Source: Clostridia bacterium (GTDB lineage Bacteria > Bacillota > Clostridia > Acetivibrionales > JAFADI01). From it: a stretch of 64,000 nucleotides of DNA. A program made the position numbers and the translations under genes. The stretch is from NCBI GenBank assembly GCA_026417615.1, contig JAOACY010000033.1, positions 464 to 64,463 of the forward strand, read 5' to 3'. Under the pieces are notes generated by a model that did not search any database, was not told the origin of the DNA, and saw only the letters and a list, made by a program, of their open reading frames with translations. Shown piece by piece: positions 10,304 through 35,390 of this stretch (position 1 is its first letter; each line of letters begins with the position of its first letter).

Positions 10304-10367
10304 AATGATGCTTTAGACCTTTTCTATTCATTTCACCTCTGATATAATATTGCTTAGGGGTGAGTAC

Positions 10368-11000
10368 ATGCCTTATAGTGTGCGAGAAATATTTGCAGCA
10401 AAGCTAAATGAAATACAAAGCAGGATTCCGGTCAGAATAATGAAAGAAGCTGACCCGGTGCCTTTTCAGCAGTTTCTGGATACAGCCCTTGAGTCATTCA
10501 CACCGGCCGTTGACAAGCAGGGAATAGAAAGAACCTCAGATTTGCAGCGCGCAAAATCATCCCTTCTGGCAAACAAAACCTCCATTACGAAGGATAAGTC
10601 TGCACTTATGGAGGAGATATCCTCCCTCATCAGGTCAGCCTCAGAAAAATACTCTGTGGATGAAAACCTGATAAAAGCAGTAATCAAGCAGGAGTCCAAC
10701 TACAACCCCCTCTCCCTTTCACGTGCCGGAGCCCAGGGATTGATGCAGCTTATGCCCGGCACTGCAGACGCTCTTTCAGTAAGCAACCCTTGGAATATCA
10801 AGGAGAATATTGAAGGCGGCACCAGATACCTAAAGGACCAGCTTGAGAATTTCGGAGGCAATCTGAAGCTTGCGTTGGCTGCCTATAATGCAGGCTCAAA
10901 TGCTGTACGCAAGTATAACGGCATCCCGCCCTATGCCGAAACTAGAGATTATGTCAATAAGGTTATAAAGTATTACAACCAGTATATGAATGAGAAATAA
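10368..11000 (+). CDS. Lytic transglycosylase (SLT domain) protein
   Basis: IKQESNYNP...[14 protein letters not shown]...[25 protein letters not shown] are SLT-domain hallmarks. I prefer ATG 10368 (RBS GGGGTGAG) over the track's alternative start at 10350. Confidence 0.85.
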
Positions 11001-11181
11001 GTCGTCTCACCTATTGAGTATTACATCACACTTTTGTCATATTGATGCAAGCCAGGAATTTCAAGACATGGTTTTGTTAATTTCATAGAAGTTACTGAGA
11101 AGATATTTTTTATGCGGGCTCGTTATGTTTATATTAATATTTAACAATAATTTAAAATTTATTATGTTTATGTATTAAATT

Positions 11182-11264
11182 TAATCCACAATATCCACAA
11201 CTTTATCAACAGTCCAAAATGTTGCAAAATACTGCATTTGTATTAAGTTTCCACATTATTCACA
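11182..11264. promoter_or_regulatory. Cluster of near-consensus DnaA boxes
   Basis: TAATCCACA (11182-11190), ATATCCACA (11191-11199), TTATCAACA (11203-11211) and TTATTCACA (11256-11264) are each one mismatch from TTATCCACA. GTTTCCACA (11247-11255) has two mismatches. A very AT-rich tract at 11130-11181 lies immediately upstream. Confidence 0.6.
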
Positions 11265-11455
11265 TTTCACGTTTCTTCATTAATCGACATTTTTAGTCCT
11301 AATTCTCTAGATAGTACTGCAGTCCCAGTCTTTATCAAAGGATAAAATTAATTAACATAAGTTATACAGTTCGACATTTTGCACTTGCTATATTTTGGTA
11401 ATTGCTTATTATTTTTGTTAAGTTTTGGCTAAGTTCAACTTTTTGTAAATAAACG

Positions 11456-11483
11456 CCTGTGGATAACCCTAGTTATCCACAGG
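11456..11483. promoter_or_regulatory. Perfect palindrome carrying two consensus DnaA boxes; also a candidate tsaD terminator hairpin
   Basis: CCTGTGGATAAC-ccta-GTTATCCACAGG has 12-bp perfect arms. It contains TGTGGATAA (11458-11466) and TTATCCACA (11473-11481), and abuts the tsaD stop codon (11484-11486). On the minus strand it is followed by GCGTTTATTT. Confidence 0.65.
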
Positions 11484-12536
11484 TCACTTTTCCCCAAGCC
11501 TTAATCCAGGTATTGCATTCAGCTCAAGTCCGGATACATTTCCGTTAAGGTATTCAAAGTATGCAGCACAGGCTATCATGGCAGCATTATCTGTACAAAG
11601 CACAGGTCTGGGATAGAAAACTCCATATCCCGCCGCTGCAGCTTTTTCTTTGAGTTGACTTCTAAGCAGGGAATTTGCGGCCACTCCACCAGCAAGAGTT
11701 ATATTCCTTACCTTTTTTATCTTTGCAGCTTTCAGAGTATTCTCCACAAGCACATCAACCACTGCCTTCTGAAAGCTTGCGCAAATATCTTCTGTTCTGA
11801 CCTTCTCACCTTTTTGCTCTTGATTGTTCAGGTAATTCAGCACAGCAGTCTTAAGACCACTGAAGCTGAAATCCAGACTGCCGTCAGAAAAGCGTACCCT
11901 TGGGAAATCCATGGCACAGCAGTCACCTCCTGCAGCCCATTTGTCAATAAGCGGCCCACCGGGATATCCCAGACCTATTGCCCTTGCGATTTTGTCAAAA
12001 GCTTCTCCGGCTGCGTCATCCCTTGTCTGCCCAAGAATTTCAAACCGGCTGTAGCTTTCAACATACACTATGTGGCTGTGGCCGCCTGATGCGACAAGAC
12101 AAATAAATGGTGGTTCAAGCTCTGGGTGGTCAAGGTAATTGGCAGCAATATGCCCTTCTATGTGATGCACTCCCACCAGCGGTTTGTTTTTGGCAAAAGC
12201 AAGCCCCTTGGCGGCCGACAGGCCTACTAGCAGAGCACCTACAAGCCCCGGACCGTATGTGACTCCTACAACATCAATCTCAGAAAGGCTGATTCCTGCC
12301 TCATCAAGGCTCTGTCTTATAACAGGCATAACAAGCTCAACATGTTTCCTTGAAGCAATTTCAGGCACGACTCCTCCATATTTCTGGTGAAGATCAACCT
12401 GCGAGGAAATAACGTTTGACAGCACATGTCTGCCGTTCTTGACAACTGCCGCGGAAGTCTCATCACAGCTTGTCTCAATTCCAAGTACGATCAAATCCTT
12501 CAAATTCCTACACCCGTTCTTTGTTTTAATACTCAT
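11484..12536 (-). CDS. tsaD: tRNA N6-adenosine threonylcarbamoyltransferase TsaD (Gcp/Kae1 family)
   Basis: [21 protein letters not shown] and SGGHSH motifs; 350 aa. Confidence 0.95.
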
Positions 12537-32977: not shown

Positions 32978-33859
32978 TCAAAGTTTATTTACATCCAACG
33001 CAGCATTTGATTTGCTCAAACCTTCAATAAAACTGTCCCTTTTGTTAAGAAGCACATTGACAAAAAGACTTTCCAAAAGGCATAACTCCGCAACCCTTTT
33101 TGACATCACTTCCCCTTTGACATGCTCTGTAAAGGCAGCAGTTAGAAGGACGATATCGGAATTTTTGGCAAGGGGCGATATAGGGTAGTTTGTGATACTT
33201 ATTACCGTAGCACCTGTCACCCTTGAGTATTTAACCACATCAACAACGCTCTTTGTTCTGCCCGAATGAGATATTGCTATAACAACATCGCCCTTATTTA
33301 AATGCGATACTGTTATCAGCTGAATATCAGGATCGGCAGATGCATATACACAGGCACCCGCCCTGATAAACTTCTGAAAGCCTGAAAAGGCTACGTTGGC
33401 TGCATCTCCGACCCCGCACAGCACTATCTTGCCAGAATTTGAAATAGCTTCTACAGCTTTTTTATACTCGTTTTTATCAATAACATTCAATGTATCCTCC
33501 AAAGCCTGGATTGAGGTTTTAAAAACCTTATTTATTACAGAGTCATAGGAGTCTTCCTCAGTAATCCCCTCATACAGCGCCGTAGTTTTACCTTCTCTGC
33601 CCTTTCCAAGGCTTGTTTTAAGTTCCGGATAACCGCTGTAACCCAGCTTCCTGGCAAGCCGCACAAAGGTTGCCTCGCTGCAGCCTGCTGCTTCCGCGGC
33701 CTCCACGATTGTAGCCTGGGAAAAAAATTCCGGTCTGTCCAAAAGAAGATCTGCAGCCTTTTTCTCTGCAGTCTTCAATGAATCGTATATGGCCTTAAGC
33801 TTCACCAGTATGCTGTGTGGTATCAATTCTGCATTTTGTTCGCTTATCCTTATCGGCAT
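32978..33859 (-). CDS. RpiR/MurR-family transcriptional regulator (HTH plus SIS)
   Basis: HTH_6-like N-terminus (TIVEAAEAAGCSEATFVRLARKLGYSGYPELK) and a C-terminal SIS domain (LCGVGDAANVA). Confidence 0.85.
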   Translation of the reverse strand: MPIRISEQNAELIPHSILVKLKAIYDSLKTAEKKAADLLLDRPEFFSQATIVEAAEAAGCSEATFVRLARKLGYSGYPELKTSLGKGREGKTTALYEGITEEDSYDSVINKVFKTSIQALEDTLNVIDKNEYKKAVEAISNSGKIVLCGVGDAANVAFSGFQKFIRAGACVYASADPDIQLITVSHLNKGDVVIAISHSGRTKSVVDVVKYSRVTGATVISITNYPISPLAKNSDIVLLTAAFTEHVKGEVMSKRVAELCLLESLFVNVLLNKRDSFIEGLSKSNAALDVNKL

Positions 33860-33884
33860 TGATATAACACCTCTTTAGGCATCC

Positions 33885-35390
33885 TTACAATCTTTTGTTG
33901 ATATTTTTAAGTGTATCATATATTTCCCTGTACACACCATACTTTTCGTTATATAATACATTTGCCTCTTTATCAGGATAATAAGTGTCCTTGAGAGAAA
34001 CTGTTTTTTTGACTGCTTCGTCAAGGCTGCTGTATCCCCCTGCAGCCGTTCCTGCAAGCAACGCAGCTCCAAGGCATGCGGCCTCCCGTACCTTCAAGGT
34101 GGAGACTGTACAACCTGTAACATCAGCCTTTATCTGGAGCCACATCGGAGACTTCGCACCGCCTCCGACGGATCTTAGATTAGTTATGTTTATACCTGCG
34201 TTTCTCATCGTTTCAATGTTGATCCTTAGTTCATAAGTCAAACTATCTAAAATTCCTTTAACAATGTCATGCCTTGTTGTAGCCATTGTCAAGCCAAGAA
34301 ATGCACCCTTTGAGTCAAGATCGCACCACGGGGTTCCGCTTCCGTTAAAATGTGGGAGTACAAGTACCGATGAAGGTCCCTTGGGAGCCTTCGTCTCCAT
34401 AAGCTGGTAAGCCCCCATTCCTTTTGCTTCTGCTTCAGCTACTTCTGCATGGCCAAGGTTATCCCTGTACCATTTGAATAGTATGCCGCCAATATGGTTT
34501 AATGCGAAAGTAAAGTACATACCGTTTTTTGCATGGCAGTAGCATGGGTAATACCCCCCATACATCTGATCATTGAGCATAGGTTTGTTGAAGGCTGCAG
34601 AAAGCACTTCCGCCGTACCATGAGAGTCAATTGCGATATTCTCTTCCACCACCCCCGCCCCAAGCGCTGCACAAGGCTGGTCATGCCCGCCTGCTACCAG
34701 CAGCATCCTTTTGGATACACCAAGTTCATCAGCAATAGCAGGGTTTATCTCCCCCACAATTTCACCCGAAGGAACAGCCTTTGAAAACTGTTCAATGCTT
34801 ACTCCTGTTTTTCCCAGAATATGTCTTGACCATTCTTTTTTTTCAAGCTCAAAAGCCATGGTTCTTGAGGCCATTGTGTAATCTATAACAGGCTCCGAAC
34901 CAAGCCTGGAAAGTATAAAATCAGCATAGGTCATGAACTTGTAGGTTCTTGAAAAAATTTCAGGAGTGTTCTCCATAAACCACAGTATCTTTGTAAGAGA
35001 ATTCATGGGGTGGGGCCTCATACCCGTAGTATCAAATAATTGCCTGTCTCCGAAAATCCTTGCGCACTCCTGAGCCTGCTTTGCAGATCGGTAGTCCATT
35101 CCCAGGAGAGTATTGTGCAGAGGCTTTTTATCCCTGTCCACAGGGATTATTGCATCCCCTTGGACAGACAGGCTCAGAGCTTTTATGTCCTTTATTCCGC
35201 TTTCAGCGACTGCCTGCCTGATAACAAGCCTTGTAAGCTGCCATACCTTCTCCGGGTCCTGCTCAGCCCATCCCGGCTTCTCACATATTACATCATACTC
35301 TTGAAAGCCGTAGCCTTTAATATTACCTTCCAAATCAAACACAACAGCCTTGGTACCGGTAGTGCCCACATCAAGTCCTATCAAGTGCAT
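33885..35390 (-). CDS. FGGY-family carbohydrate kinase (cluster 1)
   Basis: GLDVGTTGTKAVVF N-terminal ATPase motif and GGGAKSPMWLQIKADV C-terminal motif. I prefer ATG 35390 over the GTG at 35399. Confidence 0.9.
   Translation of the reverse strand: MHLIGLDVGTTGTKAVVFDLEGNIKGYGFQEYDVICEKPGWAEQDPEKVWQLTRLVIRQAVAESGIKDIKALSLSVQGDAIIPVDRDKKPLHNTLLGMDYRSAKQAQECARIFGDRQLFDTTGMRPHPMNSLTKILWFMENTPEIFSRTYKFMTYADFILSRLGSEPVIDYTMASRTMAFELEKKEWSRHILGKTGVSIEQFSKAVPSGEIVGEINPAIADELGVSKRMLLVAGGHDQPCAALGAGVVEENIAIDSHGTAEVLSAAFNKPMLNDQMYGGYYPCYCHAKNGMYFTFALNHIGGILFKWYRDNLGHAEVAEAEAKGMGAYQLMETKAPKGPSSVLVLPHFNGSGTPWCDLDSKGAFLGLTMATTRHDIVKGILDSLTYELRINIETMRNAGINITNLRSVGGGAKSPMWLQIKADVTGCTVSTLKVREAACLGAALLAGTAAGGYSSLDEAVKKTVSLKDTYYPDKEANVLYNEKYGVYREIYDTLKNINKRL

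Follow-up and report, generated by a model that had tools for sequence, protein, structure and literature searches.

A DnaA-box cluster behind tsaD in a Clostridia genome, a probable counterpart of the Bacillus subtilis gcp-ydiF cluster

INTRODUCTION

Bacillus subtilis carries six clusters of DnaA boxes outside its replication origin (oriC), and one of these DnaA-box clusters (DBCs), DBC[gcp-ydiF], lies immediately after gcp (tsaD) (Okumura 2012, PMC3245932). Stable DnaA binding has been mapped to this site, which contains 8 boxes, 4 of them perfect, with four successive boxes falling within 49 bp, and its location at two gene 3' ends was judged 'uncharacteristic for transcriptional regulation' (Ishikawa 2007, PMC2533591). 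The site is bound both in vivo and in vitro and has been called 'highly conserved' among Bacillaceae, with an unclear role (PMC3245932, PMC2533591). It is among the strongest DnaA sites in vitro, with a Kd of 0.15 µM for ATP-DnaA and 0.33 µM for ADP-DnaA and a 16-fold preference for the ATP form at 55 nM (Smith and Grossman 2015, PMC4447404). Here, we describe a DnaA-box cluster that follows tsaD in a Clostridia bacterium, within a 64,000-nt stretch of contig JAOACY010000033.1 (assembly GCA_026417615.1, positions 464 to 64,463; hereafter the window). An initial annotation, made from the letters of the window alone, had pointed to a B. subtilis cluster at gcp(tsaD)-ydiF, and the published record confirms it (PMC3245932, PMC2533591).

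The Escherichia coli datA locus is likewise a chromosomal DnaA-box cluster outside oriC. It binds DnaA, lowers initiation potential and is duplicated early by the replication fork, and its mode of action is to stimulate the hydrolysis of DnaA-bound ATP in an IHF-dependent manner. The tsaD cluster is homologous to datA neither in sequence nor in position. The DnaA-regulated promoters of B. subtilis (sda, ywlC, yydA and dnaA) also contain box clusters, which are stably bound by DnaA; those clusters precede the regulated gene, whereas the tsaD cluster follows a stop codon and its neighbouring gene varies in both identity and orientation. In Firmicutes, control is thought to act on the oligomerisation of DnaA and not on its nucleotide state (PMC5295017).

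MATERIALS AND METHODS

The host assembly (G000) is a metagenome-assembled genome (MAG) of 2.46 Mb in 127 contigs, with a completeness of 84% and a G+C content of 42%. Boxes were located in the window and in the whole assembly by scanning for TTATCCACA with at most one mismatch. Two sets of relatives were selected through tsaD: an order set of 30 genomes from 26 families, picked by TsaD match alone and blind to the boxes, and an evenly drawn class set of 54 genomes with enough sequence, 53 of which served for the upstream comparison. Unbiased frequencies come from these two sets only. The triple was searched as the 30-bp pattern TGTGGATAA-NNN-TGTGGATAN-TGTGGATTA with up to three mismatches. A degenerate-triple scan of species-representative genomes returned at least 120 loci; these are a sample and, given the query, were all selected for the triple. 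Since related genomes do not count as independent observations, all conservation counts given below overstate the statistical support.

RESULTS

A dense array of DnaA boxes begins at the tsaD stop codon

The spacer between tsaD and the gene for an SLT-domain transglycosylase occupies positions 11001–11483 of the window (483 bp). The box scan located six DnaA boxes within 11182–11481, two of them perfect, and the count rises to seven if a two-mismatch box at 11247–11255 is included. The cluster begins 0 nt past the tsaD stop codon (11484–11486), and all boxes but one read TGTGGATAA on the tsaD-sense strand. Followed in the direction of tsaD, the layout consists of a stop-codon box, a weak doublet ~215 bp farther on, and a triple of boxes packed within 30 bp that starts 53 bp after the start of the doublet. 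The parts are listed below, with offsets counted along the tsaD-sense strand from the start of the triple (0 = window 11211).

11484–12536, minus strand: tsaD (gcp) coding sequence (Pfam TsaD PF00814, E = 5e-100)
11456–11483, minus strand: palindrome CCTGTGGATAAC-CCTA-GTTATCCACAGG, two perfect boxes head to head, seen in the sequence and abutting the tsaD stop; offset -270
11473–11481, plus strand: perfect DnaA box (box scan)
11458–11466, minus strand: perfect DnaA box (box scan)
11370–11376, minus strand: TGTCGAA in the sequence, identical to the canonical Spo0A '0A box'; offset -165 from the triple start
~11312–11328: small dyad, weak in the host genome, recognized by alignment with relatives; offset ~-105
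11283–11289: TGTCGAT in the sequence, a weaker copy of TGTCGAA
11247–11264, plus strand: contiguous weak-box doublet, GTTTCCACA (11247–11255, two mismatches) followed by TTATTCACA (at 11256, one mismatch; box scan)
11212–11246: 35-bp spacer, only semi-conserved in sequence, offsets -35 to -1; it puts the doublet and triple starts 53 bp (~five helical turns) apart
11182–11211, plus strand: core triple TAATCCACA-ATATCCACA-ACT-TTATCAACA (box scan)
11130–11181: A+T tract (94% by composition) on the side of the triple away from tsaD; offset +30 onward
10350–11000, plus strand: convergent gene for an SLT-domain lytic transglycosylase, a variable neighbour outside the element (Pfam SLT, E = 2e-28)

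On the tsaD-sense strand, the doublet reads TGTGAATAATGTGGAAAC, with TGTGAATAA at offset -53 and TGTGGAAAC at -44, and the triple has the form box–3 nt–box–box, with box starts at 0, +12 and +21. The four one-mismatch boxes, which begin at 11182, 11191, 11203 and 11256, all lie on the plus strand. The initial annotation had described these four boxes within 11182–11264 and the two perfect boxes, 11458–11466 and 11473–11481, in a palindrome with 12-bp arms, and we find the same arrangement. It had also described an AT-rich stretch at 11130–11181 and a spacer free of open reading frames (ORFs). Both descriptions hold: only 2.4e-5 of the 52-nt windows of the host genome are as AT-rich as this tract, and the spacer contains no ORF of at least 40 amino acids, the longest being 32. 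The same position in the order relatives is only slightly AT-enriched (75% versus 70%), and the extreme form of the tract is not conserved.

The cluster stands out from its genome. Perfect boxes number 30 in the assembly, against ~27 expected from composition, and there are 811 one-mismatch boxes; allowing up to one mismatch, the window itself holds 22 boxes and shuffled sequence 18. Boxes are thus not enriched genome-wide, the perfect-box count being close to the expectation from composition. Locally, the tsaD cluster is the densest of the assembly: 300 bp contain six boxes (TTATNCACA, at most one mismatch), where a tight group of four or more between genes counts as a DBC in the sense of Ishikawa 2007 and Okumura 2012. 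The next best clusters have four boxes and are located upstream of dnaA (contig C43), upstream of hpf (C102) and in a spacer on C55. At the genomic rate of 841 boxes per 2.46 Mb, ~0.10 boxes would be expected per 300 bp, and a Poisson estimate of the probability of six or more is ~1e-9 per 300-bp window. The genome-wide count that the initial annotation had proposed as a check on local enrichment thus found no other intergenic region of the host genome with a similar density.

The cluster is conserved behind tsaD across several classes

A comparison of the regions downstream of tsaD had been proposed as a further check, and the boxes are kept in relatives. Boxes occur within 600 bp downstream of tsaD in 28 of the 30 order relatives, and the triple in 26 of 30; the host genome contains the 30-bp pattern only once. 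At least three boxes are found in the 500 bp downstream of tsaD in 16/54 genomes of the class set, compared with 0/53 for the 500 bp upstream, and the mean number of boxes is 1.5 downstream and 0.28 upstream. Most of the class-set boxes (72/81) have the orientation of tsaD, and 31 are perfect. A pattern search identified the triple in 85/301 class genomes, as opposed to 1/301 for the reversed control, and 21 of 30 triple loci fetched from this search lie 125–400 bp downstream of tsaD in the same orientation. Every tsaD-linked cluster that we found is located downstream of the tsaD stop codon.

Among the matches listed in the species-representative scan, about 40 of the at least 120 loci lie directly downstream of tsaD. 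The names among those matches include Ruminiclostridium hungatei, Pseudobacteroides cellulosolvens, Acetivibrionales, Clostridiaceae, Caloramator, Oscillospiraceae, Christensenellales, Acidaminobacter, Syntrophomonadaceae, Dethiobacter, four Alicyclobacillus, a Bacillaceae MAG and Alkalihalobacterium elongatum. They suggest an Acetivibrionales-type member of the Clostridia as the source of the window. The closest named TsaD relative among them is that of R. hungatei, at 76% identity, and P. cellulosolvens is also close. A literature search of titles and abstracts for DnaA boxes together with tsaD or Clostridia found no description of the site in Clostridia.

The internal layout of the element is kept as well. 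An adjacent doublet lies 51–53 bp upstream of the triple in 34 of 76 non-redundant tsaD-linked loci, including those of Alicyclobacillus, Caloramator, Dethiobacteria and Pseudobacteroides. Its non-consensus bases are retained (an A in place of G5 in the first box and of T7 in the second), as would be expected if selection favoured weak boxes that fill cooperatively. Most of the sequence separating the conserved motifs cannot be aligned; the distances are nonetheless kept.

The gene beyond the cluster is not conserved. We counted at least 11 unrelated families as downstream neighbours, including SLT (24/74 loci), radical-SAM/PDZ/DUF512, a MurC-like ligase, BioY and a small Cys-rich protein. A convergent ydiF-type ABC-F ATPase gene is the neighbour in Caloramator, a Clostridiaceae MAG, Alicyclobacillus and Acidaminobacter. 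Overall, 43 loci have a convergent neighbour and 31 a co-directional one, and this mixture led us to reject a convergent-gene insulator. The constant partner is the tsaD 3' end, which argues against a dedicated downstream promoter as well as against such an insulator.

The host DnaA closely matches PDB chain 8btg (E = 6e-172), a 446-aa DnaA that we take to be the B. subtilis protein. The base-contact motif of domain IV is near-identical between the two (PRQIAMYL, LPKIG, GGRDHTTVIHA), so that they would be expected to share their box specificity.

The first box pair is predicted to form the tsaD terminator

As RNA, the palindrome forms a 12-bp stem with six G-C pairs (minimum free energy -20.4 kcal/mol, z = -4.67) followed by the tail CGUUUAUUUA, and a terminator scan calls it as an intrinsic terminator for tsaD. 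These predictions support the suggestion of the initial annotation that the palindrome could double as the tsaD terminator. Among the 76 tsaD-linked loci, 33 have a stop-proximal box, and in 10 of these there are boxes in both orientations within 45 nt of the stop. A hairpin folds in most of these 10 two-orientation pairs, which are mostly confined to the host's order. Because the box persists where the inverted partner is missing, the box is the conserved item and its use in a terminator is secondary.

Minor motifs and other contents of the spacer

About ten order relatives have a small dyad, TAGGAC-N4-6-GTCCTA, ~105 nt ahead of the triple, with some compensatory changes; in the window (11312–11328) it is degenerate. 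The dyad may represent a protein operator or else a small hairpin. Directly after the third box (+31 to +45), many order relatives have TTAA-N-TTTTGTACAT, a motif that is not a DnaA box and reads TTAAATTTAATACAT at ~11166–11181 of the window. It might act as a weak -10 element that the boxes overlap. We rejected a promoter composed of the TTTTGTACAT and TGTCGAA motifs because the hexamer spacings are inconsistent among relatives.

An Rfam scan of 10500–12000 at a permissive threshold gave two chance-level matches only, and RNAalifold on 18 aligned relatives returned a consensus energy of 0 on both strands. With no Rfam match above chance and no consensus fold, a structured RNA in the spacer was rejected, as was a small protein gene, since the ORFs are all of 32 amino acids or fewer.

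The origin region of the host genome

The dnaA and dnaN genes are on contig C43, in the arrangement rnpA-(rpmH)-dnaA-dnaN and with a four-box dnaA promoter cluster of their own. As the initial annotation had said, neither gene is near the tsaD cluster, whose contig is 64.7 kb long. In the dnaA-dnaN spacer of C43 (~33666–33896), the boxes TTGTACACA and CTATCAACA are followed by GCAC and six trio-like repeats (TTA TTA CTA TTA TTA CTA) and then by AT-rich DNA. This spacer is a candidate for the origin core of the host genome.

The GC skew is negative or approximately zero over almost all of the window, with no sustained sign change at 11 kb. By the usual Firmicutes rule, a negative skew suggests that the minus strand, which is the sense strand of tsaD, is the leading strand.

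DISCUSSION

Relationship to DBC[gcp-ydiF] and a proposed mechanism

Taken with its conservation, the position and architecture of the cluster make it very probable that this is a non-origin DnaA-box cluster orthologous to B. subtilis DBC[gcp-ydiF]. Both are tight multi-box clusters outside oriC, both stand immediately after gcp/tsaD, and neither is an obvious promoter site, because both lie between gene 3' ends. Some Clostridia and Alicyclobacillus loci also share the ydiF-like ABC-F neighbour. The 8 boxes and 49-bp core of DBC[gcp-ydiF] are compatible with the triple-plus-extra layout of the Bacillaceae and Alkalihalobacterium loci, the layout of strain 168 itself being deduced from those of other Bacilli. 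The locus described here differs from DBC[gcp-ydiF] in its Clostridia host and in having an SLT transglycosylase neighbour instead of ydiF. It also differs in that its first box pair is fused to the tsaD stop as a terminator hairpin and in carrying TGTCGAA, which is specific to the order.

The most likely role of the tsaD cluster is that of a cooperative docking platform for ATP-DnaA. The three strong, tightly packed boxes would anchor DnaA, and the weak doublet, at a distance of five helical turns and on the same helix face, would then be filled cooperatively. The weak boxes would prefer ATP-DnaA, as measured at the B. subtilis site. The outcome would be a stable DnaA oligomer that is unable to open the DNA, since the site offers neither trios nor an unwinding element in the right place. 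Such a complex may serve as a docking or sequestration site for ATP-DnaA that is duplicated as the fork passes. In this lineage, transcription of tsaD would also terminate at the hairpin made by the first box together with its inverted copy.

Several observations weigh against this interpretation. Deletion of DBC[gcp-ydiF] alone left the ori/ter ratio unchanged (0.99), and its re-insertion into a strain lacking all six clusters gave no rescue (1.35 versus 1.37) (PMC3245932). Because neither manipulation altered ori/ter, a simple titration role is unsupported in B. subtilis. The likeness to non-origin DnaA-box clusters drawn by the initial annotation stands; titration or regulation of DnaA by the site stays a proposal, one that these deletion data do not support. 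Half of the class set (27/54) has no box downstream of tsaD, and the element is thus dispensable in many lineages. The distance from dnaA to the cluster is not fixed, being 8, 9, 12, 19, 23 and ~48% of the chromosome in closed or nearly closed genomes. Finally, the direct demonstrations of DnaA binding all come from B. subtilis. In three further closed or nearly closed genomes, which have no boxes, tsaD lies at 25, 27 and 42% of the chromosome from dnaA. A fixed distance from oriC was accordingly considered and set aside; these nine genomes give a weak trend only and are too few to draw on.

Alternative explanations

That the cluster arose by chance, or is a terminator hairpin that merely happens to spell DnaA boxes, has next to no likelihood. 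The perfect boxes of the genome do not exceed the expectation from composition by much, and two other box-containing inverted repeats fill a convergent-gene spacer on C55. These points are outweighed by the local density, by a layout that is kept across classes although the spacers between the motifs are largely unalignable, and by the retention of the box in relatives without its inverted partner; the conservation data effectively refute chance. It is also very improbable that the site is a cryptic or secondary origin or an unwinding element, at which DnaA on the triple would melt the adjacent A+T tract. The strongest DnaA-box cluster of the genome does adjoin one of its most AT-rich 52-bp tracts, and three close boxes in the same orientation with an AT tract nearby recall the basal unwinding system of Firmicutes, in which three boxes, DnaA-trios and a DNA unwinding element occupy the dnaA-dnaN spacer (Richardson 2016/2019, as relayed in PMC7561715). 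DnaA-trios are defined as at least three repeats of 3'-[G/A]A[T/A]-5' preceded by a GC cluster next to a box (PMC7561715). No such run with a GC cluster is found beside any box in 11130–11483, whereas the dnaA-dnaN spacer of the host contains box-GCAC-TTATTACTATTATTACTA. The AT tract of the tsaD cluster lies 5' of the boxes read as TTATCCACA, which is opposite to the arrangement at oriC2 and the wrong side for an origin-type unwinding element, and its extreme composition is not kept in relatives. The flanking genes converge on the site, dnaA and dnaN are elsewhere, and the placement of oriC that the initial annotation had proposed as a check shows no skew switch at the locus. We therefore rejected a replication origin on three grounds, namely the absence of a skew switch, the absence of trios and an orientation reversed with respect to the host's own dnaA-dnaN spacer, and we expect that the cluster would bind DnaA without unwinding the DNA.

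A primarily transcriptional role at the tsaD 3' end is unlikely, though it has several observations in its favour. The DnaA-bound stop box and array would act as a terminator, roadblock or insulator, setting tsaD 3'-end formation or blocking read-through between tsaD and its neighbour and thereby linking DnaA status to expression of the t6A enzyme. The first box is 0–3 nt from the stop codon in 11/30 order relatives and is part of a hairpin terminator at 10 loci, the element always accompanies tsaD and not the downstream gene, and no separate terminator for the convergent SLT gene precedes the array, the stop of that gene lying only 8–30 bp from the triple in several relatives. In B. subtilis, moreover, DnaA represses ywlC (tsaC), the other t6A gene (PMC2533591). 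However, the stop-proximal box and palindrome are largely limited to the host's order, and elsewhere an ordinary hairpin precedes the array; the mixed orientation of the neighbours does not fit a dedicated convergent-gene insulator; and Ishikawa et al. were unable to discern any effect of DnaA level on the genes flanking gcp-ydiF, because these were too weakly expressed (PMC2533591). The tsaC gene of the host genome has no boxes, and DnaA control of both t6A genes was rejected for this reason. We regard as improbable a composite DnaA/Spo0A site in this order, at which phosphorylated Spo0A on TGTCGAA would alter DnaA occupancy at the onset of sporulation, as at B. subtilis oriC. TGTCGAA is present on the box strand downstream of tsaD in 11/30 order relatives, compared with 1 on the reverse strand, 0 upstream and 0.67 in shuffled sequences. 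Six genomes have it at offsets between -160 and -165 and a seventh has it at -177, with several families represented. At 0.085 per kb, the motif is uncommon in the host genome, which encodes Spo0A (main spo0A gene on C127, 159 bits). The same triple cassette is found directly beside spo0A in other Clostridia, and an overlap of 0A boxes with DnaA boxes is known from B. subtilis oriC (Boonstra 2013, as cited in PMC7561715). Against these points, TGTCGAA is a lone 7-mer that is not paired with another box in the usual tandem fashion, no more than about a third of the order relatives carry it, and the sequences compared are related and hence non-independent. In the class set it is not enriched (2 forward and 3 reverse versus 1.4 expected), and clusters behind tsaD are also present in two genomes (G059 and G070) where no Spo0A_C was found. 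TGTCGAA is therefore at most an order-specific addition. A co-occurrence test with Spo0A was discarded as lacking power, because Spo0A_C is present in 54/61 sampled class genomes.

A second, weaker Spo0A_C-domain gene is present in the host genome (C83:17435–17707, 104 bits).

Significance

For this window, the identification of the tsaD cluster as a counterpart of DBC[gcp-ydiF] is mostly confirmatory. Its wider interest comes from the B. subtilis site, which is among the strongest DnaA sites in that organism and yet can be deleted without a clear phenotype. The cassette behind tsaD has the same spacing and orientation, and even the same sub-consensus bases, in Bacilli, Clostridia, Dethiobacteria and Syntrophomonadia although the gene beside it differs, which argues for a selected function tied to the tsaD 3' end or to a chromosomal point and not for generic titration. 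A more ambitious and, in our estimate, doubtful proposal is that the cassette is an ancient ATP-DnaA-sensing nucleoprotein switch shared by much of Bacillota. In this proposal, DnaA on the three-box anchor and on the weak boxes phased with it would assemble into a closed oligomer whose function goes beyond soaking up protein, and lineage-specific inputs, such as Spo0A in this order, would couple it to sporulation. If true, the switch could, for instance, time the availability of DnaA after fork passage or control 3'-end formation of tsaD, an essential t6A gene. The fixed layout offers a concrete, mutable target, consisting of the three-box anchor, the doublet 51–53 bp away, the stop-codon box and, in this order, TGTCGAA.

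Other DnaA-box sites

Two of the four-box clusters of the host genome have features of their own. At C55:1283–1419, the inverted box pairs GATATCCACA-TGGA-TGTGGATATC and CCTGTGGATAA-N-TTGTCCACAGG occupy the spacer that separates a lipase-like gene from nadC, the two genes being convergent. Like the palindrome behind tsaD, these pairs look like terminator hairpins built from DnaA boxes. The cluster at C102:25323–25561 has four boxes, two perfect and three in tandem (TGTGGATAATGTGTATAAATCTGTGAATAA), and lies upstream of hpf, which encodes a ribosome hibernation factor and is followed by pcrA. It could be a DnaA-regulated promoter.

The box–3 nt–box–box cassette also occurs away from tsaD. In five loci (L048, L055, L056, L057 and L058, at ~1450–1570 in each), it appears as the variant TGGGGATAA with 5–8 boxes, close behind spo0A or behind an ArsR-like gene located after spo0A. 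There it precedes two genes, the first for a small protein (MAYKKCPRC...) that has a double zinc ribbon and an acidic tail, and the second veg. The zinc-ribbon gene may be a small, sporulation-linked gene under DnaA control, reminiscent of Bacillus sda. At another locus (L063, 1491–1518; also L064 and the TGTGCATATCTC matches of family f34), three perfect boxes in the triple layout lie ~35 bp past the stop codon of a replicative helicase gene of the DnaB/DnaC type. This helicase-linked triple is a second DnaA-box site behind an essential gene and is present in at least 15 sampled class genomes.

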